IMG/VR virus record: IMGVR_UViG_3300047201_000122
Location: 1 to 52,781 of that record
DNA: 52,781 nt
Strand: one strand, 5' to 3'
Source: a virus
Taxonomy: Duplodnaviria > Caudoviricetes
The notes below the pieces were generated by a model, which did no database searches, was not told the DNA's origin, and was given only the letters and a program-made list of their open reading frames with translations. Of the stretch, positions 15,570 to 40,767 are shown one piece after another. How positions within the stretch are numbered: the first letter of the stretch is position 1; each line of letters opens with the position of its first letter. Position numbers and translations under genes: made by a program.

Positions 15570-15618
15570 TTGATAACAGGAAAGGCTTATGATATAATAG
15601 TTACAGGAGATTATTATG
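15570..15618 (+). promoter_or_regulatory. Sigma70 promoter + RBS cassette (copy 2) for the HNH family C gene
   Basis: TTGATA-17-TATAAT with TGn; 40-bp identity with 14031-14070. Confidence 0.8.
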
Positions 15619-16188
15619 GGTAAATTTATAGACTTAACTGGTAATATCTTTGGAAGATTAACAGTAATCAAAAGAGTTAATAATAAATGTAATAAAACAA
15701 TGTGGTTATGCAGATGTAATTGTGGGATGGAAAAAATTGTTTATGCAATTTCTTTAAGAAGTGGTGGCACTCGAAGTTGTGGTTGTCTACATAAAGAAGG
15801 AAACCATAAATTGGATTATGGACTTGCAAGTACGCGAACAAGAATAGGAATGTATAAAGCAAGTGCAAAGAAACGAGGGTTTGAATATAAATTAACAGAA
15901 AAACAATTTAAGGAATTGACAAGACAGGATTGTTATTATTGTGGAGCGAAACCAAATAATATACAAAAAAATAGACATAATAATGGAGCTTACATTTATA
16001 ATGGTATTGATAGAGTTGATAATTCCAAAGGATATACAATAAAAAATATTGTTCCTTGTTGTATAAAATGTAATACAGCAAAAGGAATATCAACAATGAA
16101 AGAATTTAGCGACTGGATAAAAAAGATTTATAAAAATATACAGAAGGAATATCTAAAAGAAGGTGATAATATTGAAAAAGATATTTAG
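15616..16188 (+). CDS. HNH-type homing endonuclease, family C
   Basis: DLTGNIFGRLTV...CRCNCG...SCGCL; GIDRVDNSKGYTIKNIVPCCIKCN. Confidence 0.85.
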   Translation: MGKFIDLTGNIFGRLTVIKRVNNKCNKTMWLCRCNCGMEKIVYAISLRSGGTRSCGCLHKEGNHKLDYGLASTRTRIGMYKASAKKRGFEYKLTEKQFKELTRQDCYYCGAKPNNIQKNRHNNGAYIYNGIDRVDNSKGYTIKNIVPCCIKCNTAKGISTMKEFSDWIKKIYKNIQKEYLKEGDNIEKDI

Positions 16189-19485: not shown

Positions 19486-20844
19486 ATGTTTAATAGAAAT
19501 TATTTTAACCGAAGCCTATTTAATAGAGGTAACATAGTTTTAGGAGAAACCAAAGAAGCTATTTCTGTTTATTTCTTGCAGACTGATATATCTGGAACAT
19601 TAAGCAAGGGGAAGATTAAAGAAAGGGCATCGGTTTATTCCTTATCTACTTTAATAATTGGAATATTATCTAAAGGAAAGATAAGTGAAACTTTCTCAAT
19701 TTATTCTTTAACTTCTCTTATTAATGGTGAACTGTTAAAAGGTAAAACCGAAAATGCTTTATCAACTTACAATTTAGAAACTTCAATATTAGGAATATTA
19801 GCAAAGGGAAAAATTGAAAGTATTTCTTCTATCTTCAATCTGGAAACTTCAATATCAGGATTATTATATAATAAATTCTTAACTTTATCGATTTATTCCT
19901 TGATGACTTCTATAATCGGGGAATTGAATAAAGGGAAAATAGAAAATGCCTCTTCTATATTTGATTTAAAAACTTTGTTATCGGGAGCTTTATCTAAAGG
20001 TAATATAGAAGAGGCGATTTCTGCTTTTAATTTACAAACCTCAATTTCAGGTGAATTGGCTAAGGGTAAGATAGGGGAAGTTTCTTCAATTTATAATCTG
20101 GCTTCCCTAATCGGTGGAGAATTATCGAAGGGAAAGATAGAGGATGCTTTATCGATTTATGGCCTACAGACAATAATATCTGGAATACTCATCAAAGGAA
20201 AGATTGAGAATGCAATTTCTGCTTACCAATTATCTACTCAATTATTAGGAATATTAAATAAGGGCAAGATAGAAATTGTTTCAACAATTATTAATATAAC
20301 TTCTAATCTTTCAGGAACGTTGGCCAGAGGAGAAATAGAACAAGCGAGCTCCAATTATCAATTAGTTACTAATATAATTGGATTATTAAATAAAGGTAGG
20401 ATTGAAGAAACTTCTCAAGATATAGATTTATATACTAATATTGAAGGAGAATTAAGTAAGGGTAAAATTAAAGAAACTTCCGAAACTATATTTATCTATA
20501 CTAATATAGAAGGAATATTAGCCAGAGAGGCCAGGGAAACTTCCACCACCTATGAATTAATATCTGAAATTTTGGGACAGTTATCAAAAGGGAAAATAGA
20601 AGAAGCGAGCAGTCAGTTTATTATGGCAACTGATATTATAGGAGCTATTGCGAGAAAGCAACTTACCAAAGAAGCTTCTAGTATAATAGAATTAGAAACT
20701 AATATAAACGGAGTTTTGAGAAAGTTCTTTTTCTCTCAAGCAACTTTGGATATAATCAGAAATGAGAGTGAGTTGGCAATTATCAGAAATGAGAGTGAGT
20801 TGGCAATTATCAGAAATGAGAGTGAGTTGGCAATTATCAGATAA
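19486..20844 (+). CDS. Repeat-rich fibre protein (~22-aa KGKIE..SS...L.T.I.G.L repeats)
   Basis: MFNRNYFNRSLFN N-terminus; many degenerate repeats; ends with IRNESELAI x3. Confidence 0.6.
   Translation: MFNRNYFNRSLFNRGNIVLGETKEAISVYFLQTDISGTLSKGKIKERASVYSLSTLIIGILSKGKISETFSIYSLTSLINGELLKGKTENALSTYNLETSILGILAKGKIESISSIFNLETSISGLLYNKFLTLSIYSLMTSIIGELNKGKIENASSIFDLKTLLSGALSKGNIEEAISAFNLQTSISGELAKGKIGEVSSIYNLASLIGGELSKGKIEDALSIYGLQTIISGILIKGKIENAISAYQLSTQLLGILNKGKIEIVSTIINITSNLSGTLARGEIEQASSNYQLVTNIIGLLNKGRIEETSQDIDLYTNIEGELSKGKIKETSETIFIYTNIEGILAREARETSTTYELISEILGQLSKGKIEEASSQFIMATDIIGAIARKQLTKEASSIIELETNINGVLRKFFFSQATLDIIRNESELAIIRNESELAIIRNESELAIIR
20755..20841 (+). repeat. Perfect 27-bp tandem repeat, 3.2 copies
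   Basis: ATCAGAAATGAGAGTGAGTTGGCAATT at 20755, 20782 and 20809, plus a partial copy. Confidence 0.95.
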
Positions 20845-20860
20845 AGAAGGTAATAATAAT

Positions 20861-20889
20861 TTGATAAAAATATCTTTATATGATATAAT
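20861..20889 (+). promoter_or_regulatory. Sigma70 promoter for HNH family B unit 1
   Basis: TTGATA-17-TATAAT with extended TGn. Confidence 0.8.
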
Positions 20890-20902
20890 TTTATTAAAGA
20901 AA

Positions 20903-21009
20903 TGGAACGGAAATAAAGTCGATTTTCCAAAATATATAAATGGGGAATTAAGAGATATTAAGAATATACCTTCGACTGTATATTTTCCGTTCCACTCTTG
21001 ATTCCCTAT
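20903..21009 (+). ncRNA. Interleaved A-B-A'-B' leader RNA, copy 1
   Basis: TGGAACGGAAA/TTTCCGTTCCA plus AGTCGA/TCGACT; ATGGGGAATTAAGAG/CTCTTGATTCCCTAT. Confidence 0.7.
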
Positions 21010-21031
21010 TTTATTTATTAAGGAGAATTTT

Positions 21032-21763
21032 ATGTTTGATAAGAAAAAATATATGAAGAAATATCGAAAAGATAAAAAAGGACATATTAAGAAATATAAT
21101 AAAAAATATCATAAAGAATATAGTAAAAAGAATAGAGATAAATTAACACAAGATTGTAAACAATGGCGTAAAGATAATCCCGAAAAAGTAAAGAAAATAA
21201 ATCAAAAATGTTATAGAAATCATATCGAAGAACGAAGGGAATATGGTAGACAATATTCTCAAAATAATATTGATTATTATAGAGAAGGTATTAAACAATG
21301 GAGGAAAAATAATCCTGAAAGGATAAAAAAATTGAGAGAAAATTGGTTTAAAAGTCATCCTAATTTTATGAAACAATATTGTAAAATAAAACGAAGAATA
21401 GATTTAAAATATAATCTTAATAATAAAATGCGTTTAGCAATATGGCAATCTCTAAAAGGCAATAAAAATAATAGGCATTGGGAAGGTTTAGTTAATTATA
21501 AATTAATTGAGTTGATTAAACATCTTAAATCTACAATTCCAGAATATTATACTTGGCAGGATTTTTTAAATAATAAATTACATATAGACCATATTATACC
21601 TATATCTGTTTTTAATTTTGATAAACCAGAGAATCCTGATTTTAAGAAATGCTGGGCATTAAATAATTTAAGATTATTACCAGCAAAAGAAAATCATATA
21701 AAATATAATAAATTGATTAGACCTTTCCAACCAGCATTAAAATTATTAAATATATCGAGGTGA
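21032..21763 (+). CDS. HNH-type endonuclease, family B
   Basis: DLKYNL...SLKGNKNNRHWEGLV...LHIDHIIPISVFNF...CWALNNLRLLPAKEN. Confidence 0.85.
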   Translation: MFDKKKYMKKYRKDKKGHIKKYNKKYHKEYSKKNRDKLTQDCKQWRKDNPEKVKKINQKCYRNHIEERREYGRQYSQNNIDYYREGIKQWRKNNPERIKKLRENWFKSHPNFMKQYCKIKRRIDLKYNLNNKMRLAIWQSLKGNKNNRHWEGLVNYKLIELIKHLKSTIPEYYTWQDFLNNKLHIDHIIPISVFNFDKPENPDFKKCWALNNLRLLPAKENHIKYNKLIRPFQPALKLLNISR

Positions 21764-22071
21764 TTAAAATGGAAAAATATTTAATCGGAGATAAAATAAG
21801 ATTTACTGCTTCCATTGTTAAATTAGGAAGCGTAGAACCAGATATTCCTGATGTAGTAACTATTAGTGTTTATCAAGCGGATGGGACTATTTTGTTAAAT
21901 AAAGCAAATGCAAGTTTAACAAATACACCGGGAAATTATTACTATGATTGGGTTATAGAAAGTTTATCAGAAACAATTCCATTGATTAAAAACTCCCAAT
22001 TAATTGTTTTATGGGATTGGTCTGGCTCACAAAAGAAAAAAATGAACTTTACAGTTGAACCAGTAGTATAA
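21760..22071 (+). CDS. Small Ig-like virion protein (end of tail-fibre block)
   Basis: YLIGDKIRFTASI...PGNYYYDW beta pattern. Confidence 0.5.
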   Translation: MIKMEKYLIGDKIRFTASIVKLGSVEPDIPDVVTISVYQADGTILLNKANASLTNTPGNYYYDWVIESLSETIPLIKNSQLIVLWDWSGSQKKKMNFTVEPVV

Positions 22072-22178
22072 AGAAAAAATATATATTATCTTATCCTTAT
22101 ATTTATCTGCAAGAATCTGCAACTTAAAGGGTTGTAGTCGCACTTTGCGTTAGTGAAATTCATTTTAATACCTCCTTT

Positions 22179-22211
22179 AAAAAAGCCTTCAGGTAAATGA
22201 GGGCTTTTTTT
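22179..22211. terminator. Bidirectional intrinsic terminator
   Basis: AAAAAAGCCTTCA-GGTAAA-TGAGGGCTTTTTTT between convergent genes. Confidence 0.85.
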
Positions 22212-22220
22212 ATGAATGAT

Positions 22221-22538
22221 TTATTTCTCAAAATAGAATTTTACAAAATGTATTTTTACTCTAAAATGTTTTAAATAAAGTTTAACCGCAGTATTATATT
22301 CTGGTAGATTGGATATTTTTTTCCTATATTGCTCAACACTAAGAGCACCTTTTGTAAAATTACAAAACGAGCAGGATGGCATTAGGTTATCAATATTACC
22401 TTTACCTCTATGAGATTTAGGAATAATATGGTCTACATTAAAATCTTCTAAATTGAGGGCATCCCCACAATAACAACATTTCCCAGAAAATTTTTCATAA
22501 ACCATTTTACGTTTATTTTTGCTTATAGATGGCATCAC
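22221..22538 (-). CDS. Minimal HNH endonuclease (the only clear minus-strand gene)
   Basis: RKMVYEKFSGKCCYCG...VDHIIPKSHRGKGNIDNLMPSCSFCNFTKG. Confidence 0.9.
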   Translation of the reverse strand: MMPSISKNKRKMVYEKFSGKCCYCGDALNLEDFNVDHIIPKSHRGKGNIDNLMPSCSFCNFTKGALSVEQYRKKISNLPEYNTAVKLYLKHFRVKIHFVKFYFEK

Positions 22539-22564
22539 TAATTCCTTCTAATTCTTTATTAAGA

Positions 22565-22593
22565 ATTATATCATTAAAAGTGCTATAACTCAA
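22565..22593 (-). promoter_or_regulatory. Sigma70 promoter for the minus-strand HNH
   Basis: Reverse complement TTGAGT-17-TATAAT with TGn. Confidence 0.7.
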
Positions 22594-22617
22594 ATAGATA
22601 AACGATTGTAATGGCTT

Positions 22618-22700
22618 GCATACCCTTAGCATACCTTTACAGTAAAGAATAAGAAGAATAATAATAATAACAATAATAGTAATAATAACAATAATAAGTA
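22618..22700. repeat. GCATACC(C)TT direct repeat followed by an AAT/AAC/AAG microsatellite (ori-like)
   Basis: gcatacccttagcataccttt then aagaataagaagaataataataataacaataatagtaataataacaataataag. Confidence 0.6.
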
Positions 22701-22710
22701 AAATTTTTTA

Positions 22711-22739
22711 TTTACTATTCTCTTTTTATATGTTATAAT
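22711..22739 (+). promoter_or_regulatory. Sigma70 promoter for the HNH family B gene at 22770
   Basis: TTTACT-17-TATAAT with TGn. Confidence 0.7.
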
Positions 22740-22769
22740 AATAAATAAGAATAAGAAAGGAGAATAGTT

Positions 22770-23492
22770 ATGAGTTATGAAAATAAAATAAAAGAGAAAT
22801 TATACCAACAGGAATATCATAAAAATAATCCTAAAAAACTTAAAAGATATATCGAAAAATTTTATAAAATACATCCCAAGAAGAATGCTGAATATCAACG
22901 AAAATTTCAGTTATTAAATAAAGGATATGGAAAAAAATATCAAGAAAAATTCCATAGAGAACATCCCGAGAAAAATGCCGAATATCAGCGAAAATTTTAC
23001 AAACAAAATAAAAATAAAATAAAAATATATATGGAAAAGTATCGTAAGGATAATAAAGAAATTTTAAATAGATATTCTAATCAATATCGAAAAAACAATA
23101 AAGAAAAACAAAATAAACGTGCAAGAAATAGAAGAAGAATAGATTTAAAATATAATCTTGATAATAGAATAAGAGTAGCAATATGGCAATCTTTAAAAGG
23201 GAATAAAAATGGTAGACATTGGGAAGGTTTAGTTGGTTATTCCTTAAATGATTTAATGAAGCATTTAATAAAGACAATCCCTGAGGGATATATTTGGCAA
23301 GATTATTTCGAAGGTAAATTACATATTGACCATATAATACCTATTTCCGCTTTTAACTTCACTAAACCAGAACATATAGATTTTAAAAGATGTTGGGCTT
23401 TAAATAATTTAAGGTTGTTTCCAGCAAAAGAAAATCATATAAAATATAATAAATTAAATAAACCATTCCAACCTTCATTAAAAATCAGTTAA
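22770..23492 (+). CDS. HNH-type endonuclease, family B (no structured leader)
   Basis: Same C-terminal domain as 21032; HPxKNAEYQRKF internal repeats. Confidence 0.85.
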   Translation: MSYENKIKEKLYQQEYHKNNPKKLKRYIEKFYKIHPKKNAEYQRKFQLLNKGYGKKYQEKFHREHPEKNAEYQRKFYKQNKNKIKIYMEKYRKDNKEILNRYSNQYRKNNKEKQNKRARNRRRIDLKYNLDNRIRVAIWQSLKGNKNGRHWEGLVGYSLNDLMKHLIKTIPEGYIWQDYFEGKLHIDHIIPISAFNFTKPEHIDFKRCWALNNLRLFPAKENHIKYNKLNKPFQPSLKIS

Positions 23493-23611
23493 GATAATCC
23501 AAAAAATTATTTAAAAACCACCGAAATTAACAAAATATAAAAAGTAGTTTTAAACTTTATTTTTGAGCCATACATACCAACGGTTTCAAGCATTTTTTTT
23601 CACTCCAAAAC

Positions 23612-23640
23612 TTGACAGTTATAAATAAATTATATATAAT
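23612..23640 (+). promoter_or_regulatory. Consensus early promoter
   Basis: TTGACA-17-TATAAT. Confidence 0.9.
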
Positions 23641-23672
23641 ATTTACAATAGGATAAAGAAGGAGATGAAAAA

Positions 23673-24035
23673 ATGGACAAGTTTCAAAAAACACTCGACA
23701 CAAATCACGGAGTCAGTCTTTTAAAATTCAAATATAACGGAACAGAGTTTGATGTAAGAAGCACCGACCATTCTATTTCAAGATTTATAGAAAACGGTAT
23801 AGATGTAGATGCAGCGGTAGGCAGCATAGTTGCACTCGGAAAAGAAAGACTTTACAGATTTGCAAAAGAAAATAGTGATGTGGCAATCATAGACAGAGAA
23901 CATGGTATAGTGACCATTATTACTTTCGAAAGTAACCAGATAAGAATAAGAACTATAATTCCAAATTCAAATGCCTTCATTAAATCAGGAACAAAAATAT
24001 ATAATCTAAATCAAAAGAGTTTTGGAAGGAGATAA
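23673..24035 (+). CDS. Hypothetical early protein, possible RelE/BrnT-like RNase fold
   Basis: STDHSISRFIENGID...IRIRTII pattern; strong SD. Confidence 0.4.
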   Translation: MDKFQKTLDTNHGVSLLKFKYNGTEFDVRSTDHSISRFIENGIDVDAAVGSIVALGKERLYRFAKENSDVAIIDREHGIVTIITFESNQIRIRTIIPNSNAFIKSGTKIYNLNQKSFGRR

Positions 24036-24038
24036 AAA

Positions 24039-24242
24039 ATGGGGATAAGAATAAGTCATAAAAGATTAAATGAGAAAGTAAATTGGTTTGAAGAAAAAAT
24101 CCATCATAGACAATTTTGGACTTGGTATGGATTGGATTATACTGAAATCCAAATCGATGGAGTAAGTACAATATTTCGAAATAATAAAGATGCTTATAAT
24201 TATTTAGATAATTATGGAAAATCGAAAGGAGATAAAAGATGA
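24039..24242 (+). CDS. Hypothetical protein
   Basis: GGAG SD; tightly packed in the operon. Confidence 0.6.
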   Translation: MGIRISHKRLNEKVNWFEEKIHHRQFWTWYGLDYTEIQIDGVSTIFRNNKDAYNYLDNYGKSKGDKR

Positions 24243-24422
24243 GAGCACTAAAGAATATAAACAAAAAAAGCAGAGAAGAGAAGGAAAGATTATTTAAAGA
24301 CAAGTTATCCTTTGATATATATAAATATACAAGGAAGTTATACAAGAGGAGACAAAAGGATAGGAAGTGTGATGCGGTCTAAAAACCGCTGGTGAAATAA
24401 AACAAGAAAGGAGTTTAAAAGA

Positions 24423-24665
24423 ATGAATAAGAAAGAAATTAAAATAGTCGTAGATGAGCTAAGAGCAAATAAAAGATATGGGACGGATACTAATATTCTG
24501 GATGGATGCGGGTTATCGGACTTCCCTAAAAGAAAAATGGTTAGGAAAGAAGTCATTGTGGATTTTCTACAATATCAATGTCGTTATCTGAATGGCGGTA
24601 TTGATGAAGAAGAATTAAGCAGTAATATCGAAACATTAAAAGTTAAGAAAGTTATAATGATATAA
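24423..24665 (+). CDS. Hypothetical protein
   Basis: AAGGAG SD. Confidence 0.6.
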   Translation: MNKKEIKIVVDELRANKRYGTDTNILDGCGLSDFPKRKMVRKEVIVDFLQYQCRYLNGGIDEEELSSNIETLKVKKVIMI

Positions 24666-24691
24666 GAAAGAAATAAAAGGAGGATTCTAAA

Positions 24692-24883
24692 ATGTTAAAA
24701 ATCAAAATTGAAACTGATAATGAAGCTTTTCAAAAAGGCAATAAAGAGATTGAACTTGTTAGATGTTTAAAAGATGTTATCGAATGGATTGAGATAGGCA
24801 GGGAAGAAAATCCAATATATGATTTAAACGGAAATAAAGTAGGATATTTTAAACTTCAAAATGATTATATCAGAAAATTATAA
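24692..24883 (+). CDS. Small conserved-type phage protein
   Basis: KIKIETDNEAF...IYDLNGNKVG pattern; AGGAGG SD. Confidence 0.65.
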   Translation: MLKIKIETDNEAFQKGNKEIELVRCLKDVIEWIEIGREENPIYDLNGNKVGYFKLQNDYIRKL

Positions 24884-24916
24884 TTAAGATTACTATTTAA
24901 GAAGGGGGTTTTTAAA

Positions 24917-25315
24917 ATGTTAGATGTAACAATATTAAGCGAAAAAAAGAGAAAAGAAAAATCACAAATGGGATATAAATATTTAATCCAAAATGAATAT
25001 GGACAAGGAGAAAATGCTTTCAGGACCAAAAATGGCTTTGTAAATTGGTTGAGAAAATGCAATTTAAGAATAGACCTTAATAATTTTTCAAAGTATAGAT
25101 GGATTATAAAAGGACAGAGAACTTTTAACATTATCGGAGAAGTAGAATTGATTTATAATATCAAAAAGAATGATATACCTAAAAATACAAAACCTATTGC
25201 CTGGCTATTGAATGGAAGTTACCGGATATGTTATGCAGAGAAATTAGATTATGGTTGTAAAATATACGCTCAGAATTATTCAGAGATTAAAACATTACCT
25301 TATAAATGGTATTAA
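24917..25315 (+). CDS. Hypothetical protein
   Basis: ORF with SD in the early operon. Confidence 0.6.
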   Translation: MLDVTILSEKKRKEKSQMGYKYLIQNEYGQGENAFRTKNGFVNWLRKCNLRIDLNNFSKYRWIIKGQRTFNIIGEVELIYNIKKNDIPKNTKPIAWLLNGSYRICYAEKLDYGCKIYAQNYSEIKTLPYKWY

Positions 25316-25330
25316 AAAGGAGATTAATAT

Positions 25331-25359
25331 TTGATAATTCCAAATAAATATGATATAAT
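25331..25359 (+). promoter_or_regulatory. Sigma70 promoter for HNH family B unit 2
   Basis: TTGATA-17-TATAAT with TGn. Confidence 0.8.
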
Positions 25360-25365
25360 TTAATA

Positions 25366-25459
25366 GGTAATAAGTGAGCAGTTTTTTTAGTTTATAAAAG
25401 GCACAAAGTAGGTTTAGGAATATTAACTGTTCCTTATTACCAACCGAAATGTGCCTTTT
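25366..25459 (+). ncRNA. Interleaved A-B-A'-B' leader RNA, copy 2 (loop-E motif)
   Basis: GGTAATAAG-T-GAGCAGTT/AACTGTTC-CTTATTACC; AAAAGGCACA-AAGTA-GGTT/AACC-GAAA-TGTGCCTTTT. Confidence 0.8.
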
Positions 25460-25475
25460 TTGTTAGGAGAAGATT

Positions 25476-26192
25476 ATGGAATTAAAACAATATTATATTA
25501 AATTAAAAAGAAAAATAAATGAGGCTGAAAAATATTATAAAGAATACCCTGATAAATTAACTCCAATATATAAAGAAAAACTTATAAAGGCAAAGGAAAG
25601 ATATAATAAGGAATATCTTAAACTTAATGGGGATAAAAAAAGAAAAGCGGCAAAAATATATCGAAATGAACATAAAAAAGATATAAAAGAGAAAAATAAA
25701 AAATATTGGAAAGAACATCTTAAAGAAAGACATGAAAATAGTAAAAGATATTATAATAAAAATTATGAAAAAATACATAAATGGCAAATGGAGTATGCGA
25801 AAAATAGACACAAAACAGATTTAAAATATAATCTTAGGATGAAAATAAGTAAAGCAATAAATCAATCTCTAAGATATTGTAAAAAAGTTAAAAGTAATAA
25901 AAATGGTAGACATTGGGAAGACCTTGTAGGTTATAAACTAAACGATTTAATTATTAGATTATTATCTACTATGCCAGAAGGTTATACTTGGGAAGACGTT
26001 AAAAGGGGAGAATTGCATATAGACCATATCATACCTATAAGTGTATTTAATTTTACTAAACCAGAGCATATAGATTTTAAGAGATGTTGGGAATTGGAAA
26101 ATTTGCGGTTATTATCCAAAAAAGATAATTTGATAAAAAATGCTAAATTAACAAAACCATTCCAACCATCATTATTATTAGAAGAATTATAA
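25476..26192 (+). CDS. HNH-type endonuclease, family B
   Basis: RHWEDLVGY...LHIDHIIPISVFNFTKPEHIDFKRCWELENLRLL. Confidence 0.85.
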   Translation: MELKQYYIKLKRKINEAEKYYKEYPDKLTPIYKEKLIKAKERYNKEYLKLNGDKKRKAAKIYRNEHKKDIKEKNKKYWKEHLKERHENSKRYYNKNYEKIHKWQMEYAKNRHKTDLKYNLRMKISKAINQSLRYCKKVKSNKNGRHWEDLVGYKLNDLIIRLLSTMPEGYTWEDVKRGELHIDHIIPISVFNFTKPEHIDFKRCWELENLRLLSKKDNLIKNAKLTKPFQPSLLLEEL

Positions 26193-26513
26193 ATAATATC
26201 AAAAAGTTGCTTATGATTATACCTCTAAAGGAAAGAAACGCATCCTGGAGCGTCCTACGACATCGATATTTTTCTAAAATTGAATAAAATGTATATGTAT
26301 CAACGATTTCAAGTAAAATTCGCTTTTTCGGATTATGTATAGATATATCTTGGCAAGTATTTTGAGGGATGAAAACCTCTTCTAAGGGCAAAATTATAGC
26401 AATTAGGGGATATTTGGAAATGAATTTAATATTAATCGGAGATAATCTTGTTAGGGTTGATATTAAAACTAAATTAATACACCTTATCAGAAACAATTAA
26501 GAGAGGAGATTGA

Positions 26514-26927
26514 ATGAAAGTTATCAACGAAACGGATTATGATACTAAAGAATTAAAAGAATTATTTACGAGATGTTGCCAGGAGAAGTTAAGCGATCAT
26601 AACAAGTTGCTGGTAAAAGTTAGATACACTACAAGTAGATTTATCTTAGGATGGGCGTGGACAAAGATTGAGATAGCATTACCTAAAAAATATTTAGATA
26701 TAGATTTTATAAAGAAGAGATGGAGAGATACTTATGAAAACCATTTAATATTTTTAAATTTTAATCGAGTTTTAGCTTTTGTGTTTATACACGAAACCTT
26801 TCATATTCTTCATCAGCATCATAGTGATATGAGAGGAAGTTATTATAGCGGTTGGAATAAATTCCTTGCAAATTCAAGTAGATTAAGTTTCGCTGATAGT
26901 TTTAATATCTTAAAGAAAGGAGATTAA
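26514..26927 (+). CDS. Hypothetical protein with HExxH (metallopeptidase-like)
   Basis: FVFIHETFH. Confidence 0.5.
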   Translation: MKVINETDYDTKELKELFTRCCQEKLSDHNKLLVKVRYTTSRFILGWAWTKIEIALPKKYLDIDFIKKRWRDTYENHLIFLNFNRVLAFVFIHETFHILHQHHSDMRGSYYSGWNKFLANSSRLSFADSFNILKKGD

Positions 26928-27141
26928 AATGGATATAATTAAAAAAGATAATTACGCACCATTTAATGAAAGCAGAATAAATTTTATACAGTTTGCAAGA
27001 GAAGTAGAACATTATACCGGTTGTAAACAAAATAGAAGCAGGTTAAAATTTAGGTTACTTGACCATCAGAATATATTCACCACTGAATTCACTTATTTCC
27101 TTAAAATATAATAAACAATAATTATATGAGGTAAAAAATAA

Positions 27142-27705
27142 ATGTCAAAATTAATAGATATAACAGGGCAAAAGTTTGGGAGATTAACGGTAATTAGAAG
27201 AGAACCTAACGATAAGTGGGAAAATACAAGATGGTTGTGTAAATGTTCTTGTGGCAAAAGCAAAATTATTTTGGTAACAAGTTTAACAAGTGGAGCTACT
27301 AAAAGTTGTGGTTGTTTACAAAAAGAAATTATAGGGAATATCAGAAGATTAAAATCGGGACTTTCCACCATAAGAGCGATAATAAATAATTATAAAGGTG
27401 GAGCAAGAAGTAGAGGATATAATTTTAATTTAACAGAAAAACAATTTATTGAATTAACACAAAAAGATTGTTTCTATTGTGGAACAAAACCAAATACTAT
27501 AGCTAAATGGGGACATTGTTATGGAGAATATATTTATAATGGATTAGATAGAATAGAAAACAATAAAGGATATACGATAGATAATGTCGTTCCTTGTTGT
27601 TTTGTTTGTAATCGAGCAAAAGATACAATGACATTACAAGAATTTCAAAATTGGATTAAGAAAGTTTATAGTAAAACGTTTACTAAAAAAGGAGAAATAA
27701 AATGA
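27142..27705 (+). CDS. HNH-type homing endonuclease, family C
   Basis: DITGQKFGRLTV...CKCSCG...SCGCL; GLDRIENNKGYTIDNVVPCCFVCN; paralog of 15616. Confidence 0.85.
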   Translation: MSKLIDITGQKFGRLTVIRREPNDKWENTRWLCKCSCGKSKIILVTSLTSGATKSCGCLQKEIIGNIRRLKSGLSTIRAIINNYKGGARSRGYNFNLTEKQFIELTQKDCFYCGTKPNTIAKWGHCYGEYIYNGLDRIENNKGYTIDNVVPCCFVCNRAKDTMTLQEFQNWIKKVYSKTFTKKGEIK

Positions 27706-27908
27706 AGTGCTGGGAATGTAAAAAGAAAATTGACCATTGCCATAGGGTTTTTTATTGTGATAAGTTTGTAGAAAAAGGAAGAGATGTTTGCGATAATTGT
27801 TATAAACAATTAAAATTTAATCCTTGCCATTTTGCAGAAGTTAAGAAGATAACTGGAAGACAATTAGATTTGAAATTTTATAAAGTTAAAATTATGCACT
27901 GGTTATGA
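27702..27908 (+). CDS. Small Zn-finger protein
   Basis: CWEC...CDNC. Confidence 0.6.
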   Translation: MKCWECKKKIDHCHRVFYCDKFVEKGRDVCDNCYKQLKFNPCHFAEVKKITGRQLDLKFYKVKIMHWL

Positions 27909-27920
27909 AAGGAGAAGAAA

Positions 27921-28049
27921 ATGCCAAAGGCGATTTGTAAAAAATGCGGAAAGATATTTTGGGGTTGGGCTTTGAAATACAAAGATAGTTATTGTGATTG
28001 TTGCGGAGAGAAATTAGAAATAACTGAAATCCCTGACCCGAGAGATTAA
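27921..28049 (+). CDS. 42-aa Zn-ribbon protein, not in ORF track
   Basis: AAGGAG SD; MPKAICKKCGKIFWGWALKYKDSYCDCCGEKLEITEIPDPRD*. Confidence 0.7.
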   Translation: MPKAICKKCGKIFWGWALKYKDSYCDCCGEKLEITEIPDPRD

Positions 28050-28188
28050 AAATGTTAAGGAGCAGATGTAAATTAACTTTTATTAGAAATTAATTGCTTT
28101 TTAATCTCTATCAAAATATCGGGATTGGGGACGTTAGAATATATCTGTGATTAATTTAATCATTGGAGATTTAGTGCTTCCCAATCCT
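28041..28188 (+). other. Two consecutive long inverted repeats (structured intergenic element)
   Basis: AGAGATTAAAAA/TTTTTAATCTCT (28041-28109); GGATTGGG/CCCAATCC with inner TGATTA/TAATCA (28122-28187). Confidence 0.55.
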
Positions 28189-28201
28189 CATAAAAAATAT
28201 G

Positions 28202-28230
28202 TTGACTTTTATTTATAATTAGTATATAAT
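28202..28230 (+). promoter_or_regulatory. Sigma70 promoter for the radical SAM + mini-tmRNA unit
   Basis: TTGACT-17-TATAAT. Confidence 0.8.
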
Positions 28231-28262
28231 TTATATAATAAGCAAAAAGGGGTAAAAAAGAG

Positions 28263-29072
28263 ATGGGTATAATCTATAAACCTCAAGGCAAAGCGAAGGA
28301 ATACAGTCCTTACGCATTGAATATCTATATTGGATGTGACTACGCTTGCAGATATTGCTATATCAAAAATCTCTATGTTAATAACGAAAAGGTAAAACTT
28401 AGAGAAAATCTTATTTCGGGACTAGAGAATCAACTAAAAAAGCAGGAAATAAATAAACAAGTATTATTAAGTTTTCTCGGAGACCCCTATTGTATTGCAG
28501 ATATAGAATACAAAAAAACAAGAGAAACTCTGGAAATACTTAATCAATATGATGTTCCTGTCGCTATCCTATCTAAAGGCGGGAATCGGATACTAAGGGA
28601 TTTGGATTTATTCAAAAAATTTAAGAAGATAAAAGTAGGAGCTACTTTAACCCTCTTAGATAAAAAACAAAATGAATATTACGAGCCTAAAGCTGCATCA
28701 ACTGGAGAAAGAATATGCGTATTAAGAAAATTACATCAAGAAGGTATTCGGACTTGGGTTAGTTTTGAACCAGTTATAGATCCAGAGCAAACCTTAAAAA
28801 TATTGGAATTAACTAAAGATTTTGTAGATGAGTTTAAAGTGGGGAAAATGAATTATTTCCAATTACCGCAAAGTATAAATTGGGGAATATTTGGCGAGAG
28901 TATATCTAAGAGATTATTAGAAATACAAAAAGATTTTTATATTAAAAAAGATTTATATAAGTATATGGATTATAAGTTACAGCCAAAATATATAGACCAA
29001 GATTACCTGGCATTAAAAGACGATACGGAAACGATTAAAGAAAAAGATATAGAGCAACAAATATTATTTTAA
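28263..29072 (+). CDS. Radical SAM protein (SPL/photolyase-like type)
   Basis: LNIYIGCDYACRYCY (CxxxCxxC); GDPY; TWVSFEPVID. Confidence 0.85.
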   Translation: MGIIYKPQGKAKEYSPYALNIYIGCDYACRYCYIKNLYVNNEKVKLRENLISGLENQLKKQEINKQVLLSFLGDPYCIADIEYKKTRETLEILNQYDVPVAILSKGGNRILRDLDLFKKFKKIKVGATLTLLDKKQNEYYEPKAASTGERICVLRKLHQEGIRTWVSFEPVIDPEQTLKILELTKDFVDEFKVGKMNYFQLPQSINWGIFGESISKRLLEIQKDFYIKKDLYKYMDYKLQPKYIDQDYLALKDDTETIKEKDIEQQILF

Positions 29073-29075
29073 TAT

Positions 29076-29204
29076 GGGGGCGACAGGTTTCGATAGTTAT
29101 CTTCCAACGGGCGGGTCCCTCCTAAAGATAAATAGATTTATAACCTTGGAGTCTTTAGATAGGAAAGATGCTATACTCGGGTTCGATTCCCGACGCCTCC
29201 ACCA
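29076..29204 (+). ncRNA. ssrA: Miniature tmRNA-like RNA (tRNA-like domain with ~56-nt insert, 129 nt total)
   Basis: 5' GGGGGCG-ACAGGTTTCGA; 3' TAC-TCGGG-TTCGATT-CCCGA-CGCCTCC-A-CCA; G3.U70 pair; no D-stem; helix-2 TAGTTATCTTCC/GGAAAGATGCTA. Confidence 0.85.
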
Positions 29205-29318
29205 ATATTTGAAGTAGCTATATTATAATATACCAGAAAAATTAACTACGCGAAAAAGAGTGTTTTCTTAGGTATTCAAGGCATACCAAAAATAAAAAAA
29301 AGAAAGGAGAGGATATAT

Positions 29319-29489
29319 ATGCTACATCCAGCAATAATAAGACAAAGAGCAAGAAATAAAACAATATGGATAGCCAGAGAATATCATAAACCCTTACAAT
29401 TGAAGGCGAGGGAGTTGGGATGTTCGATGACTTTTTTACTAAATCAGATACTTAAAAAATATTTTGAAAAAGGAGTAAAAAATGAATAA
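29319..29489 (+). CDS. Ribbon-helix-helix-type regulator (56 aa), not in ORF track
   Basis: AAGGAGAGG SD; KTIWIAREYHKPLQLKARELGCSMTFLLNQILKKYF. Confidence 0.6.
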   Translation: MLHPAIIRQRARNKTIWIAREYHKPLQLKARELGCSMTFLLNQILKKYFEKGVKNE

Positions 29490-30402
29490 GAAAGAAATCG
29501 ATAATGTAAAAGTTAGATTTGATACATTATTGAGTGAATTGTTACAAAATATGAACGAGAAAGAGGACCTGCTGTCAAATAGAGTAATGGAAATTAATAT
29601 GGGAGTTAGTGGGACTATTAGCACGGCCAGTTTTGAGAATTGGAAACCGGGGTTTGGTATGAAGGTGAATACCGAAGGATTAACTAAAGAGCAAATAAGA
29701 GAAGCATATTTACAAGGCAAGGCAGAATTAAAAGGGCAGTTTAATCTGGAGAAGAATAATTGCAGGGCAGAAGCAGTATCGGAGAAATTTAAGAATATTG
29801 GATTTACTATAGTAAATAATATCGCCTATGTTTGGATTACCAGCGTTTGCAATTATGATAAAATATTTATGATTCCAGAATTTGAACTTAATCAATATTC
29901 CAGCAGGGGCAAAATTATCCACGAATTGATATATGAATTTATTAAGACAAAGAAGTGGATAGAAAATATCACTATTTTTTGTGAGGAGAAAGGGTTGATT
30001 GAGGATTTAGCCATAGTTCAGAAAGGAAATTTGAAATTAAGTATAGAGGATTGCAGTTATAAAAAAGTTATGGAAAATTGTATTGACAAAATAGAAGAAC
30101 CAGAATTTGAAGTTGAAGTAATAAATGATGAACATCTTTATAAGGGGAGAGCCGATTTCTTCTGCAAATGGGAAAAAATTCCCACAGTAGTAGATATAAA
30201 GGTAGGTTCAGCAAGGGATATGATGCAATTAGGAGCTGAGGCAGTATGCAAATTTGGAACAAAAAAGATGATTATAATTCCCGCTGGAGAATCTGATACC
30301 AAACAAGGATATTCAAAACCAATTGAGAATGAAAATGTTACAGAAGAATTTAAAAGATTTATTAAAAAGAGAGATAAATTTTTTAAAAAGTTTGGATTTT
30401 AA
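29482..30402 (+). CDS. PD-(D/E)XK exonuclease (recombination, Cas4/YqaJ-like)
   Basis: SRGKIIH...FEVEV...YKGRADF...VVDIKVG...QL. Confidence 0.7.
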   Translation: MNKKEIDNVKVRFDTLLSELLQNMNEKEDLLSNRVMEINMGVSGTISTASFENWKPGFGMKVNTEGLTKEQIREAYLQGKAELKGQFNLEKNNCRAEAVSEKFKNIGFTIVNNIAYVWITSVCNYDKIFMIPEFELNQYSSRGKIIHELIYEFIKTKKWIENITIFCEEKGLIEDLAIVQKGNLKLSIEDCSYKKVMENCIDKIEEPEFEVEVINDEHLYKGRADFFCKWEKIPTVVDIKVGSARDMMQLGAEAVCKFGTKKMIIIPAGESDTKQGYSKPIENENVTEEFKRFIKKRDKFFKKFGF

Positions 30403-30417
30403 TCGGAAGGAAATAAG

Positions 30418-31017
30418 ATGAGAATAAAAGGAACATATCATCATTCTGAAAAAACGAAAGAAAAAATAAGTAAATCACATATTGGAAAACATTTATCAGA
30501 AGAATCAAAAAGAAAAATAAGTATATCTAATCTTGGAAAATCTCCTAATCGTTTAGGAATATCTCATACAGAAGAGACAAGAAAAAAAATGAGCAAATCT
30601 CATCTTGGGAATAAATCTACCTTAGGCAAACATCTTTCAGAAGAACATAAAAATAAAATAAGTAAATCTCTTAAAAAGGAAAAACATCCTAATTGGCAAG
30701 GAGGTATTTCATATCAAAAAGGATATGGTAATTTTAAAACTAGAAGAAGAAATATTAAGAAATATAATAATGGAGGTTTCCATACCATTGGAGATTGGGA
30801 GAATTTAAAAGCACAATATAATTGGATTTGTCCTTGTTGTGGGAAAAGAGAACCTGAAATAAAATTATCAGAAGACCACATAATACCAATAACGAAAGGG
30901 GGTAGTGATAATATAGAAAATATACAACCACTTTGTAAGTCTTGTAATTCAAGAAAATTTACAAAGATAATTAGATATAATGAAGGGAGATATATAAAAT
31001 GTATAGAAGTCAATTAA
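30418..31017 (+). CDS. NUMOD3-repeat HNH homing endonuclease
   Basis: [12 protein letters not shown]-type repeats; CPCC...[25 protein letters not shown]. Confidence 0.9.
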
Positions 31018-31161
31018 AAAGAAAGATTAATAGCGTAATGGCAAAATATGGAAATGATAATAAATATTTAAGATGGAATATGGTCAATATGATAATGGAA
31101 TTGGTAGATTTATATTATACTAAATTCAAAATTAAATATGATGAAAGGAAATTAAAAGAAA

Positions 31162-32421
31162 ATGAAAATCATTAATTTAAAAAGTAATAATTTAAAAGGT
31201 ATCAAGGCAATAGATATAACACCAAAAGATGATATGGTAATCATATCTGGTAAGAATGGAGCAGGAAAAACTTCGGCACTTGATTCAATATGGTACGCGA
31301 CAGAGTGGAAGGCAGGCTCTAAAGGTACTCCGATGCCAATCAGAAAGGGAGAAAAATTTGCAGATGTTAGGTTAACTCTATGTGAGGATTTAACAAAAGA
31401 GCAAATCGAGCAAGGGATAAAACCTAAACCGTTATTCATCGTTTATAGAAGCTGGACTTTAACTGGGAATACATATCTAAAAGTTACCAATGCAGAAGGT
31501 TTAGCCTATGATACACCCCAGAAGTTATTAGATGGGTTTATCGGATATTTGAGTTTCGACCCCAGAATATTTGCACGTATGAATGATAAAGAGCAGAGAG
31601 ATTTATTAATTAAAATAACAGGATTCGATGTTACTGCAATAGAGGAGAAAATAGTTGAATTAAGAGAGAAAAGAAGATTGCAAGGGCAAAAGGTTAAATT
31701 GCTATCTGGAGAAAGAGAAGAAATACTCATTGAGGATTTACCGGAGAAAGAAATTTCAATAGCTGAAATGAACGATAAATTACAAAAGGCTCTCTATGAG
31801 AATCAGCAATTAGAAAGAAATATAGAAGGGTTAGAAGAGGCTAAAACAGAATTACGTAAATATGAATTAGAAGTAGAAAGATTTAAATTAATAATAAAAG
31901 GAAGAAAAGATTATATAGCAAATCATAAAAAGATTGATGTAGATGATATGAAATCTCAATTATTAAAAGCTTCGGTTATCAATGACCAGATTAAGGCTCG
32001 CAAACGAAACGAAGAATCTGATAAAAAACAAAAAGAAGCTCAGAACGTTTATGACGAGTTTACTCAAGGGATAGAAAGTTATACTACCGAATTGAAAGAA
32101 GGTCTTAAAAAATCGTGGTCTAAAATTCCTGACCAGAAATTGAGTTTGACTGAAACGGGTATTGCCTATGACGGTATCCCGTACTCTCAAATATCATTTT
32201 CTGAACAATTAATAATTGCTCTGAGAATTGGGATGGCTCTAAATACAATATTAAGAGTGATAAGAATTTCAGATTATTCATTATTAGACGAGGAAAGCAA
32301 AAAAACCATTAGGCAAATGTCTAAGGACGAGAATTATCAAATATGGGCTGAGACTGTAGACGGGACCGGGGAAATTGGTTTCTACATCGAGAATGGAGAA
32401 ATAGTTGACAAACGAAAGTAG
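31162..32421 (+). CDS. SMC/Rad50-like ABC-ATPase
   Basis: Walker A SGKNGAGKTS; long coiled coil; SFSEQ signature; SLLDEE. Confidence 0.85.
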   Translation: MKIINLKSNNLKGIKAIDITPKDDMVIISGKNGAGKTSALDSIWYATEWKAGSKGTPMPIRKGEKFADVRLTLCEDLTKEQIEQGIKPKPLFIVYRSWTLTGNTYLKVTNAEGLAYDTPQKLLDGFIGYLSFDPRIFARMNDKEQRDLLIKITGFDVTAIEEKIVELREKRRLQGQKVKLLSGEREEILIEDLPEKEISIAEMNDKLQKALYENQQLERNIEGLEEAKTELRKYELEVERFKLIIKGRKDYIANHKKIDVDDMKSQLLKASVINDQIKARKRNEESDKKQKEAQNVYDEFTQGIESYTTELKEGLKKSWSKIPDQKLSLTETGIAYDGIPYSQISFSEQLIIALRIGMALNTILRVIRISDYSLLDEESKKTIRQMSKDENYQIWAETVDGTGEIGFYIENGEIVDKRK

Positions 32422-32433
32422 ATAATATATAAT
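32405..32433 (+). promoter_or_regulatory. Consensus promoter for HNH family B unit 3 (overlaps the ATPase stop)
   Basis: TTGACA-17-TATAAT. Confidence 0.85.
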
Positions 32434-32439
32434 ATTAAG

Positions 32440-32543
32440 TGAGAGTAAGAGAAGCGGTTTTTTTATTATAAATATAAAAGGACGCAAAGTAAGTGTAAGA
32501 ATCTTTGACCGCTTCTTACTCTCAAACTGAAATGCGTCCTTTT
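32440..32543 (+). ncRNA. Interleaved A-B-A'-B' leader RNA, copy 3 (loop-E motif)
   Basis: TGAGAGTAA-GA-GAAGCGGTT/GACCGCTTC-TTACTCTCA; AAAAGGACGCA-AAGTA-AGT/ACT-GAAA-TGCGTCCTTTT. Confidence 0.8.
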
Positions 32544-32559
32544 TATTTAGGAGAAAATT

Positions 32560-33174
32560 ATGCTTAGTAGAAAAGAGATAGATAGAAGATATTATCTTGG
32601 ACATAAAGAAAAAGTAAAAGAAAAAAATAGAAAGTTTAGAGAAGAGAATCCTTTATATTCCAAAAAATGGTGGGAAAATAATCGTAGAAAACAAAAGAAA
32701 TATCAAATGGAATGGAAAAAGAAGAATATAAAGAAGGCAAAAGAAATTTGGGATAAATATTATATGGAGAATATCACAAATATAAGAATAAGAGATAAAA
32801 AATTCAAAAAGGAAAAATATAAAACTGATTTAAGATATCATATTAATGATTTAATGAGTAGAGCAATAAGACATTCTTTAAAGGGGAATAAGAATAATCG
32901 TAGTTGGAGTATTCTCGTAGATTATAAATTGAATGATTTGATAAGACATCTCAAAAAGACTTTACCTGATGGTTATATTTGGCAAGACTATATAGAAGGC
33001 AAACTACATATAGACCATATAATCCCAGTTACTGCTTTTAACTTTACTAAACCAGAACATATAGATTTTAAAAGATGTTGGGCTTTGGGAAATTTAAGAT
33101 TATTGCCAGCAAGGGAAAATATAAAAAAGAATAATAAATTATCTAAACCGTTTCAACCTGCATTAAAAATATAA
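32560..33174 (+). CDS. HNH-type endonuclease, family B
   Basis: LHIDHIIPVTAFNFTKPEHIDFKRCWALGNLRLLPAREN. Confidence 0.85.
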   Translation: MLSRKEIDRRYYLGHKEKVKEKNRKFREENPLYSKKWWENNRRKQKKYQMEWKKKNIKKAKEIWDKYYMENITNIRIRDKKFKKEKYKTDLRYHINDLMSRAIRHSLKGNKNNRSWSILVDYKLNDLIRHLKKTLPDGYIWQDYIEGKLHIDHIIPVTAFNFTKPEHIDFKRCWALGNLRLLPARENIKKNNKLSKPFQPALKI

Positions 33175-33568
33175 AAGAAAGGAGATAAGAATATGGATAT
33201 GAAATTTATCTGGATATTCCTAATATGGTCAGTTATAATGATAATCTTGGTAAGTAATAAATTGAGAAAAGAAAAGGAAGAAAAGATGACTATAAGTAAA
33301 AAAGGATTAAAGAATTATGATAAGCCATTAGAAATGAGTATTGGAGAGAGATTAAGAAGGAAAAATAATTCAAAAGGGGGATTAAAATGGTAGAAGAAAA
33401 ATTAGAAGAATTAAAGAAGATTTTTAAAATGGAAATAAGAGATATTATCAGTAAAGCGAAATTAAATCAAGCATATTTTATGAGTGATGATTATATACAG
33501 AAAATAACTGATAAATTAGTTTATGAAGTCAAGATAAGAATAAATAATAAATAAGGGGGTCTGATAGA

Positions 33569-40323: not shown

Positions 40324-40767
40324 ATGTTTGATAAAAAAAAATATATGGAAAAGTGGCGAAAAGATAATAAAAAACATAAAATAAAATATGATAAACAATG
40401 GAAAAAAAATAATCCAGAATATATGAAAAAATGGCTTAAAGAAAATCCTGAATCTAATAGACCAGCTATAAAAAGATATTTCAAAACAGAAAAAGGTAAA
40501 GCTTGTAATCAAAGAGGACATTTTAAAAGACAAGCAAGATTTAGAGAAATTATTAACACCTTGACAGCAGAAGAATGGTTGAATATTTTAAAAGAGAATA
40601 ATTTTAGATGTATTTATTGTGGTAAGGATTTATTAAATTTATTTGATAAACCTGTGAGAGACCATATTATTCCTATAAGTAAAGGTGGGAATAATACAAA
40701 GGAGAATGTAACCTCCGCTTGCAGGAGTTGTAATGCAAAAAAATATAATAAAATTATAGTAAAATAA
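40324..40767 (+). CDS. HNH homing endonuclease, family A
   Basis: INTLTAEEW...CIYC...RDHIIPISKGGNNTKENVTSACRSCN. Confidence 0.9.
   Translation: MFDKKKYMEKWRKDNKKHKIKYDKQWKKNNPEYMKKWLKENPESNRPAIKRYFKTEKGKACNQRGHFKRQARFREIINTLTAEEWLNILKENNFRCIYCGKDLLNLFDKPVRDHIIPISKGGNNTKENVTSACRSCNAKKYNKIIVK

Follow-up and report, generated by a model that had tools for sequence, protein, structure and literature searches.

Why does the same elaborate leader stand in front of three nuclease genes of one phage, and what does it do for them? The window analysed here is the whole of phage record IMGVR_UViG_3300047201_000122 of IMG/VR (52,781 bp). Upstream of each of three nuclease genes, all of an HNH-like family named here family B, lie a strong promoter and a folded RNA of about 100 bases with a terminator-like hairpin at its end. 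This leader, referred to below as the module, is well supported by comparison with its relatives as an undescribed structured RNA family on the + strand. The reading that we favour, with a probability of roughly 45%, is that the module is a portable promoter plus attenuator, in which the helix B:B′ with its U-tract would be a leaky or switchable terminator whose upper stem could be opened by the 5′ end of the transcript.

A first-pass annotation, made from the letters of the window, had described a promoter, two interleaved pairings (A with A′ and B with B′), a U-tract, AGGAGA-N5-ATG and a family-B gene in three copies, and all of these elements were found in their places when the coordinates were re-read by a script (Table 1). 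Exact TTGAYA-N16-18-TATAAT sites number six in the window versus 0.48 expected by chance, and three of the six are the leader promoters; the other consensus promoters are followed by short, unstructured leaders. Strand A begins 6 nt past the −10 element in copies 2 and 3, and 13 nt past it in copy 1. The A:A′ pairing consists of 11 bp, an internal loop and 6 bp in copy 1, 15 bp with a 1-nt bulge in copy 2, and 16 bp with a 2-nt bulge in copy 3. The B:B′ pairing has 13, 6, and 7 bp, respectively, and is lengthened by A-U pairs in copies 2 and 3. AGGAGA-N5-ATG follows the U-tract in all three copies, the Shine-Dalgarno (SD) sequence lying 4–9 nt past the U-tract as listed, or 1 nt past the U-rich stretch in copy 1. 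Relative to 200 shuffles, the single-sequence folds of copies 1, 2, and 3 have z-scores of −4.1, −2.7, and −3.2. A tandem repeat scan of the leaders (TRF) found no array, its sole row being a 10-nt period of 2.2 copies at 20947–20967.

Other parts of the description had to be redrawn. A′ was said to abut B′ directly, which holds for copy 1 only; copies 2 and 3 have 8 nt separating the two strands, and these belong to a 3-bp covarying helix (GGU/ACC versus AGU/ACU) and to an AGUA/GAAA loop strand. What had been taken for a linker with conserved RGAAT belongs, as one of its strands, to a third helix with covariation, C:C′, which pairs the same bases of A′ as A does. Likewise, strand A is not wholly different from copy to copy, as a purine-rich core is common to copies 2 and 3.

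Relatives of the locus were searched with an alignment of the four family-B proteins of the window. Viral contigs yielded 79 loci, genome contigs 2, and metagenome contigs 201, of which 80 were kept. The two genome-contig loci, both from one metagenome-assembled genome, are not informative for the leader, and a megablast search of 20700–26300 against an annotated phage collection gave no match. In total, about 29 related modules were found in metagenomic phages, a set biased towards loci picked via the HNH gene. A helix descriptor asks for a B:B′ pairing that encloses A′, has A before it and runs into a T-tract close to the start codon; of 124 distinct HNH upstream regions, namely those of 120 family-B loci and the four window genes, all with enough sequence, it picked out 16, versus 1 of 620 shuffles. 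Two of the positives (L043 and L134) are weak and look like chance, and four or five real cases (L109, L115, L141, L148) escaped the descriptor and were found by eye or by a covariance model.

Two main types of module can be distinguished: type 2 is like copies 2 and 3, and type 1, which includes L104, L115, L120, and L109, is like copy 1. For type 2, 17 distinct modules were aligned with a covariance model, R1, that holds the A:A′ pairing only. Changes on both sides of a pair are seen in this alignment at 14 of the 19 pairs of A:A′ (90% of cells paired), at 7 of the 11 pairs of B:B′, which is absent from the model (92.5%), at two of three pairs of the inner 3-bp helix (94%), and at 5 of the 7 pairs of C:C′ (85%). 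The A:A′ counts lean towards the aligning model, a bias that is not shared by a MAFFT alignment of 11 type-2 leaders; there all four helices are again supported, with both-sided changes at 12 of 19 A:A′ pairs. None of 500 shuffles reached the covariation score, and only 33–56% of cells remain paired when the partners are slid by 1–3 columns. RNAalifold, unaided, predicts the B helix, the inner helix and C:C′. Furthermore, compensatory changes distinguish orthologous modules, as in copy 3 versus that of the related phage G001 and in copy 2 versus that of G057. Within the helices, 51 cells are G-U and 13 are A-C, so that selection acts on the + strand RNA; the selected RNA structure of the first-pass annotation is thus borne out by homologues.

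Between B:B′ and the 3-bp helix, AGUA stands opposite GAA in 13 of the 17 modules, and plain pairs take the place of this loop in L090 and L158. As a sequence pattern, the loop fits the loop E or bulged-G (S-turn) consensus. Of 22 modules, 20 have a promoter-like −35/−10 pair immediately before them, and one of the remaining two has too little upstream sequence.

Type 1 is represented by five sequences whose helices were read one by one and left out of the pair counts, because a MAFFT alignment of the five was out of register. In these, the A helix has 9–12 bp, an internal loop and a further 6 bp, and A′ abuts a B helix of 13–18 bp. A perfect C:C′ hairpin of 9–10 bp holds the inner A′ strand in its loop. 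In addition to the two types, there are G+C-richer variants (L037, L053/L055, and L064; less clearly L051 and L068). A module with mismatched strands occurs naturally at L141:222-340, where A′ is like that of L264 and A is like that of copy 2. Its A:A′ pairing falls to −8.3 kcal/mol, with B:B′ and C:C′ intact; L141 is probably a recombinant and may serve as a natural mutant.

The first-pass annotation had not recognised the leader as a described motif, and comparison with Rfam 15 agrees with this: no match to a leader was obtained at the gathering score in the window, at E-values up to 10 in 20700–32700, or in 10 related loci. A literature search, which did not cover supplementary files, found no earlier description of such a leader.

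The genes behind the module are of several kinds. A scan with R1 of whole records (104 records covered) gave matches of at least 77 bits in four of them: three in G001, and one each in G019, G054, and G057. The modules of G001 precede the HNH gene already known, a second family-B HNH gene and an open reading frame (ORF) for a 93-aa membrane protein. That of G019 precedes a family-B HNH gene, that of G054 a YqaJ exonuclease gene, and that of G057, which is like copy 2, a gene of a second HNH family (family A) whose product is 53–55% identical to those of the window genes 27142–27705 and 15616–16188. By the descriptor, variant modules were also located before an MT-A70 methyltransferase gene in G054 and before a gene for a DUF559/restriction endonuclease-like nuclease in G001. 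A scan for the DNA pattern that is independent of any protein gave five stretches, two of them new, and the new one that was read, L264, is a module with a divergent family-B HNH gene. Every module found without selection for HNH has behind it, within about 40 nt, an SD sequence and a start codon on the same strand. Conversely, more than 100 family-B HNH genes carry no module, among them the fourth family-B gene of the window (22770), for which the first-pass statement that it lacks the leader is confirmed; it has a weaker promoter-like site of its own at 22711–22739. An RNA specific to family-B HNH, as had been suggested, therefore does not agree with the data, since unrelated genes also stand behind the module and most family-B genes lack it, and the same spread speaks against a cofactor or guide bound to the nuclease, as it does against autoregulation by the HNH protein in particular. 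Weaker R1 matches are present in G024 (19.7 bits) and G003 (15.5 bits), and a 31-bit match in L033/L034, lying inside a 495-aa ORF, was treated as chance.

Individual sites give a mixed picture of whether module and gene are transferred jointly. Modules of G001 and G054 lie after an SbcC-like gene, at the same site as copy 3. In the window, the copy-3 HNH ORF with its own SD sequence is located between the U-tract and the SD sequence of the homologue (33193–33393) of the G001 93-aa ORF; judged against G001, the HNH gene 32560–33174 is an insertion that separates the next gene from a leader already in place. In further relatives that carry this SbcC-like gene, the site is without a module. Both module and HNH gene are missing from the copy-1 site in G001 and G054, so that the two are present or absent together with respect to these two related phages and some co-transfer is possible. 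In another phage, a type-1 module and an HNH gene are found on the opposite side of the gene neighbouring the copy-1 site. In a further set of loci read by eye, the shared end of an upstream gene borders immediately on an HNH gene in L132/L135, and in L005/L090 on a promoter, a leader and a different HNH gene; from the sequences, this site seems to have been occupied repeatedly.

On a FastTree phylogeny of 131 HNH proteins, the 23 leader-bearing genes are scattered, with 21 changes needed, and type-2 leaders require 7 changes versus 7.8 in shuffles. Co-inheritance of leader type and HNH clade is thus not seen on this tree, which is weak evidence because only 16 of 124 branches are well supported. 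Taken as patterns of presence and absence, these data indicate that module and nuclease are separable in both directions. They also indicate that the two co-occur far above the level of chance placement among some 60–80 genes. Either nuclease genes would insert behind modules, or module and gene would sometimes move together, or both.

How might the module work? In copies 2 and 3, C′ lies within A′, so A and C are rivals for one set of bases. The stretch of A′ (5–6 nt) that pairs with the 3′ end of A sits in the C:C′ loop, an exposed position that can be likened to that of a strand-displacement toehold. In folds free of pseudoknots, the only kind that the tools predict, the nested minimum free energy (MFE) structure contains the A helix for 7 of the 17 modules and the B helix for 9. 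The mean energy is −16.9 kcal/mol for the A helix versus −12.5 kcal/mol for the B, inner and C helices together. By this competition and this division of folds, the two-state attenuator proposed in the first-pass annotation is plausible. In L053/L055, no more than 1–4 nt are left between A′ and the flanking B and B′, so that full A:A′ and B:B′ cannot coexist there. More generally, A:A′ and B:B′ are interleaved and both covary, which is the pairing pattern of an H-type pseudoknot; the mutually exclusive pairings A:A′ and C:C′, both covarying as well, involve the terminator-like hairpin. The G+C-rich B:B′ stem, with invariant or covarying G-C pairs, is followed by 5–8 U residues in all 17 aligned modules.

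According to the favoured reading, each copy would be a self-contained expression unit, made of a strong promoter of the host type and, behind it, some 100 nt of leader RNA. Towards its 3′ end, the leader is predicted to form a long irregular hairpin with B:B′ at its base, usually the AGUA/GAA internal loop, the 3-bp helix, and C:C′ at its top, and the U-tract directly after it gives the whole the look of an intrinsic terminator. The first 17–19 nt of the transcript (A) are complementary to the top of this hairpin (A′), including the toehold of 5–6 nt. In the terminator form, C:C′ would be paired and A free, and in the alternative form A:A′ would be paired, opening or rigidifying the upper hairpin. 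The distance from the U-tract to the start codon is 15–35 nt, which leaves no room for a promoter, so that the downstream gene is expected to be expressed by read-through only. The module would then set the number of polymerases that reach the gene, and possibly their timing, with read-through determined by the competition of A and C for A′; both termination at B:B′ plus U and its lowering by A:A′ are inferred. The balance may be tipped by a kinetic, factor-independent partition, which is favoured by the finding that no evident sensor is conserved across the module types. The genes served would be accessory or mobile ones, mostly for free-standing homing-type nucleases, that bring the module along or insert just behind it. 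A bolder version, which we put forward with considerable doubt, is a self-timed switch without ligand, in which displacement of the terminator top by the 5′ end races the polymerase and so fixes read-through; the cassette would be a mobile landing pad captured repeatedly by unrelated genes, and the terminated pseudoknot RNA might have a function of its own.

Several observations weigh against the attenuator. In all three copies, A′ overlaps neither B nor B′, so A:A′ is not a classical antiterminator. The long B:B′ helix of copy 1 and its relatives (13–18 bp) might form whatever A does, and C′ and A′ barely overlap in type 1, so that all four helices could coexist there as a compact double pseudoknot instead of a switch. 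The bare B:B′ hairpin has a loop of at least 40 nt, and a terminator scan called none of the three copies. Nor is the hairpin a continuous one with a short apical loop of 3–8 nt, as its stem reaches a loop of about 5–11 nt only via the internal loop, bulges, the 3-bp helix and C:C′. No unpaired block and no evident sensor or ligand site is common to the different types of module, and none of the aptamers in Rfam matches. Finally, a small RNA gene standing on its own would likewise consist of a strong promoter and a terminator.

Such a gene would produce large amounts of a trans-acting RNA some 100 nt long, which would be a pseudoknot or have its 5′ seed free and would be directed for example at host or phage RNAs or at RNA polymerase, and the downstream gene would use the leak. 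The near-consensus promoters, the terminator-like 3′ end with its A-tract and U-tract and the strong covariation of the helices would all be expected of it, and the U-rich stretch after A recalls many small RNAs of the Hfq type. However, an SD sequence and a start codon on the same strand are found within about 40 nt of every module examined, none of which stands alone or at the end of an operon, and the candidate seed, A, is the least conserved part, with A′ in cis as its sole evident partner; we regard a small RNA gene as an unlikely, though serious, explanation. Somewhat more doubtful is a 5′ untranslated region that stabilises or insulates the mRNA, either by a 5′-terminal helix against decay that depends on the 5′ end or by an RNase III site, and that, through a locked structure shortly before the U-rich tract and the SD sequence, makes translation of a mobile gene independent of its context. 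The position of A in copies 2 and 3 would place the 5′ end inside the helix, and the A:A′ helix, 17–19 bp with a bulge, recalls RNase III sites of phages. The SD sequence is unpaired in the consensus fold, a weak U-G pairing of it to the U7 linker being seen in the single-sequence folds of copies 1 and 2 only; an anti-SD role for the linker is unlikely, and covariation cannot test it because both partners are invariant. A stable hairpin just upstream of a free ribosome-binding site is described for T4 seg43(25) in PMC2988022. For stabilisation, however, a simple hairpin would suffice, and neither the covariation of C with A′ nor the constant, terminator-like A-tract and U-tract flanks of B:B′ would be explained.

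The interleaved inverted repeats might alternatively be a signal in the DNA, a target of homing or recombination or a cruciform, with an incidental RNA fold. Nucleases of three folds (HNH-B, HNH-A, and the DUF559 type) indeed stand at the same position just behind the U-tract, the copy-3 HNH ORF is an indel beside an otherwise conserved module, and family B weakly matches a PHROG family named “endonuclease VII.” This would account for the landing sites of nucleases but not for the covariation of the helices: the excess of G-U over A-C cells reveals selection on one strand only, helix sequences differ among modules and so offer no common recognition sequence, and the spacing of promoter and SD sequence is kept as for an expressed RNA. 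We consider a DNA-level signal distinctly improbable. Least probable of all is an RNA partner of the family-B HNH protein, be it an autoregulatory site, a type III-like antitoxin, a guide or a cofactor, even though the N-terminal half of the HNH proteins is very basic and repeat-rich and all three modules of the window precede family-B genes. The same module family precedes unrelated proteins, the descriptor was positive in a small part of the HNH upstream regions (16 of 124), leader-bearing genes are unclustered on the HNH tree, the leaders lack tandem repeats, A is base-paired in cis unlike a free guide, and no Rfam family matches, HEARO included.

A leader peptide or leaderless mini-ORF of 8–42 codons was also considered and rejected. 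AUG is present at the start of A, near the predicted transcription start, in five of the 17 type-2 modules (L101, L102, L166, L169, and L177; by-eye reading), with GUG at this place in copy 3; frames and lengths are unconserved and an SD sequence is lacking.

The four family-B genes of the window are paralogs with 45–50% mutual identity, and a block HIDHIIP…N…N is invariant across them. Pfam HNH and HNH_4 give sub-threshold matches only (E = 0.02–2.3), PHROG 1035, “endonuclease VII,” matches two of the four proteins at about E = 1e-7, and NCBIfam profiles gave no match to the window family-B proteins; they are taken as HNH-like nucleases, with weak profile support.

Table 1. Positions of the three leaders and of the four family-B genes in the window.
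Feature	Position	Strand	Details
Copy 1 promoter TTGATA-17-TATAAT	20861..20889	+	TG upstream of −10
Copy 1 strand A	20903..20922	+	Outer part 20903-20913, 3-nt loop, inner part 20917-20922
Copy 1 strand B	20942..20954	+	13 nt
Copy 1 hairpin C:C′	20960..20986	+	20960-20969 with 20978-20986; inner A′ (20972-20977) in loop; in MFE fold
Copy 1 outer A′ and B′	20984..21007	+	A′ 20984-20994, B′ 20995-21007 immediately after
Copy 1 3′ end	21008..21034	+	U-rich tract, AGGAGA 21021-21026, ATG 21032
Copy 2 promoter TTGATA-17-TATAAT	25331..25359	+	
Copy 2 strand A	25366..25388	+	A 25366-25381, starting about at +1; then U7 25382-25388
Copy 2 B-helix 5′ strand	25396..25413	+	A-tract, GGCACA 25400-25405, AAGUA loop strand, GGU
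Copy 2 C, C′ and A′	25416..25441	+	C 25416-25422, C′ 25428-25434 inside A′ 25427-25441
Copy 2 3′ end	25443..25478	+	ACC, GAAA, B′ TGTGCC 25450-25455, U6, AGGAGA 25465-25470, ATG 25476
Copy 3 promoter TTGACA-17-TATAAT	32405..32433	+	Overlaps last codons of SbcC-like ORF 31162-32421
Copy 3 strand A	32440..32464	+	A 32440-32457, then U7
Copy 3 B-helix 5′ strand	32476..32494	+	A-tract, GGACGCA 32480-32486, AAGUA, AGU
Copy 3 C, A′ and C′	32495..32524	+	C 32495-32501, A′ 32509-32524, C′ 32513-32519 inside A′
Copy 3 3′ end	32526..32562	+	ACU, GAAA, B′ TGCGTCC 32533-32539, U5, AGGAGA 32549-32554, ATG 32560
Family-B HNH-like nuclease gene behind copy 1	21032..21763	+	243 aa
Family-B HNH-like nuclease gene behind copy 2	25476..26192	+	238 aa
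Family-B HNH-like nuclease gene behind copy 3	32560..33174	+	204 aa
Fourth family-B HNH gene	22770..23492	+	Without structured leader

Other features of the window were noted beside these genes. Family A is represented by 15616–16188 and 27142–27705 on the + strand and, more weakly, by 40522–40758, with matches to PHROG HNH endonuclease or endonuclease VII families at E = 1e-20 to 1e-23; both HNH families together, the phage has at least six homing-type nuclease genes. Upstream of the fourth family-B gene, a strong bidirectional terminator-like hairpin is found at about 22180–22213, where weak Rfam leader look-alikes match via the terminator only. It is followed by ORF 22221–22538, the sole sizeable minus-strand ORF of the region, which lies just upstream of that gene, and by an AAT-rich, microsatellite-like run (22648–22697, period 3, 16.7 copies) in the long A+T-rich spacer before it. 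A perfect 27-nt tandem repeat (3.2 copies, 20755–20841, + strand) forms the 3′ end of ORF 19486–20844 and ends 20 nt upstream of the copy-1 promoter; a similar repeated peptide end is present in the G001 and G054 homologues of this ORF. At 29076–29204 (+), the Rfam transfer-messenger RNA (tmRNA) family RF00023 matches with 53.6 bits, above its gathering score, and the match is limited to the tRNA-like ends (acceptor stem, T-arm, and encoded CCA) around a 55-nt insert. ARAGORN reports neither tRNA nor tmRNA in this region, which overlaps a 47-aa ORF at 29074–29217.

The module would add an undescribed, well-supported family of structured RNAs from uncultivated phages. Its layout is unusual in that the 5′ end of the RNA would pair with the upper part of the terminator that the RNA itself carries. 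It would suggest a route by which phages express potentially harmful accessory genes, such as those for homing nucleases, exonucleases and methyltransferases, via a portable unit, and would give a handle on where free-standing homing nuclease genes settle. As no conserved ligand pocket is apparent, the device could also be of use as a compact model from nature, or as a component, where read-through is to be tuned by strand displacement during transcription.

Among known systems, type III toxin–antitoxin loci such as ToxIN consist of a promoter, a structured, pseudoknot-forming RNA, a terminator that sets the ratio of RNA to protein, and a toxic nuclease, and the gene order at the module is like theirs. 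The leaders, however, have no tandem RNA repeats, the protein is DNase-like of the HNH type and not an RNase like ToxN or AbiQ, and the module is also found before a methyltransferase and an exonuclease. HEARO, or the omega RNA of IscB, is likewise a structured RNA just upstream of an HNH-domain gene. The module differs from it in that there is no Rfam match even at E-values up to 10, the variable segment is paired in cis, and the proteins, of 204–243 aa, have an HNH-like motif only and no RuvC domain. The c4 RNA of P1 and P7 and hok mRNA are leaders of phage or plasmid genes whose expression is decided by complementary segments private to a single transcript, segments that covary among related elements; c4 blocks a downstream ribosome-binding site, and the 5′ end of hok pairs with its 3′ end. 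Topology and targets are different in the module, and the Rfam c4 family does not match it.

Also comparable are the terminator/antiterminator leaders, including riboswitch platforms and the ribonucleic antiterminator (RAT) of LicT/SacY (PMC3575810): there, too, a promoter-proximal segment has two alternative partners, and one fold is a hairpin with a U-tract directly upstream of the regulated gene. In the module, however, it is the extreme 5′ end of the RNA that competes, and it invades only the top of the hairpin or its loop while the base is spared; none of the known kinds of sensor (aptamer, protein site, tRNA site) can be recognised, and sequence and helix lengths vary widely among types. 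Restraint of phage homing genes by terminators and hairpins is already known in T4-like phages with a different anatomy, where homing endonuclease genes are held back by intrinsic terminators (mobE, segF) and by stable hairpins at the ribosome-binding site (PMC2988022). The T4 hairpins described there sequester the ribosome-binding site and are relieved by a late promoter inside the hairpin, whereas the module leaves the SD sequence free, has its promoter upstream of the structure, and is an interleaved four-helix fold common to non-nuclease genes.

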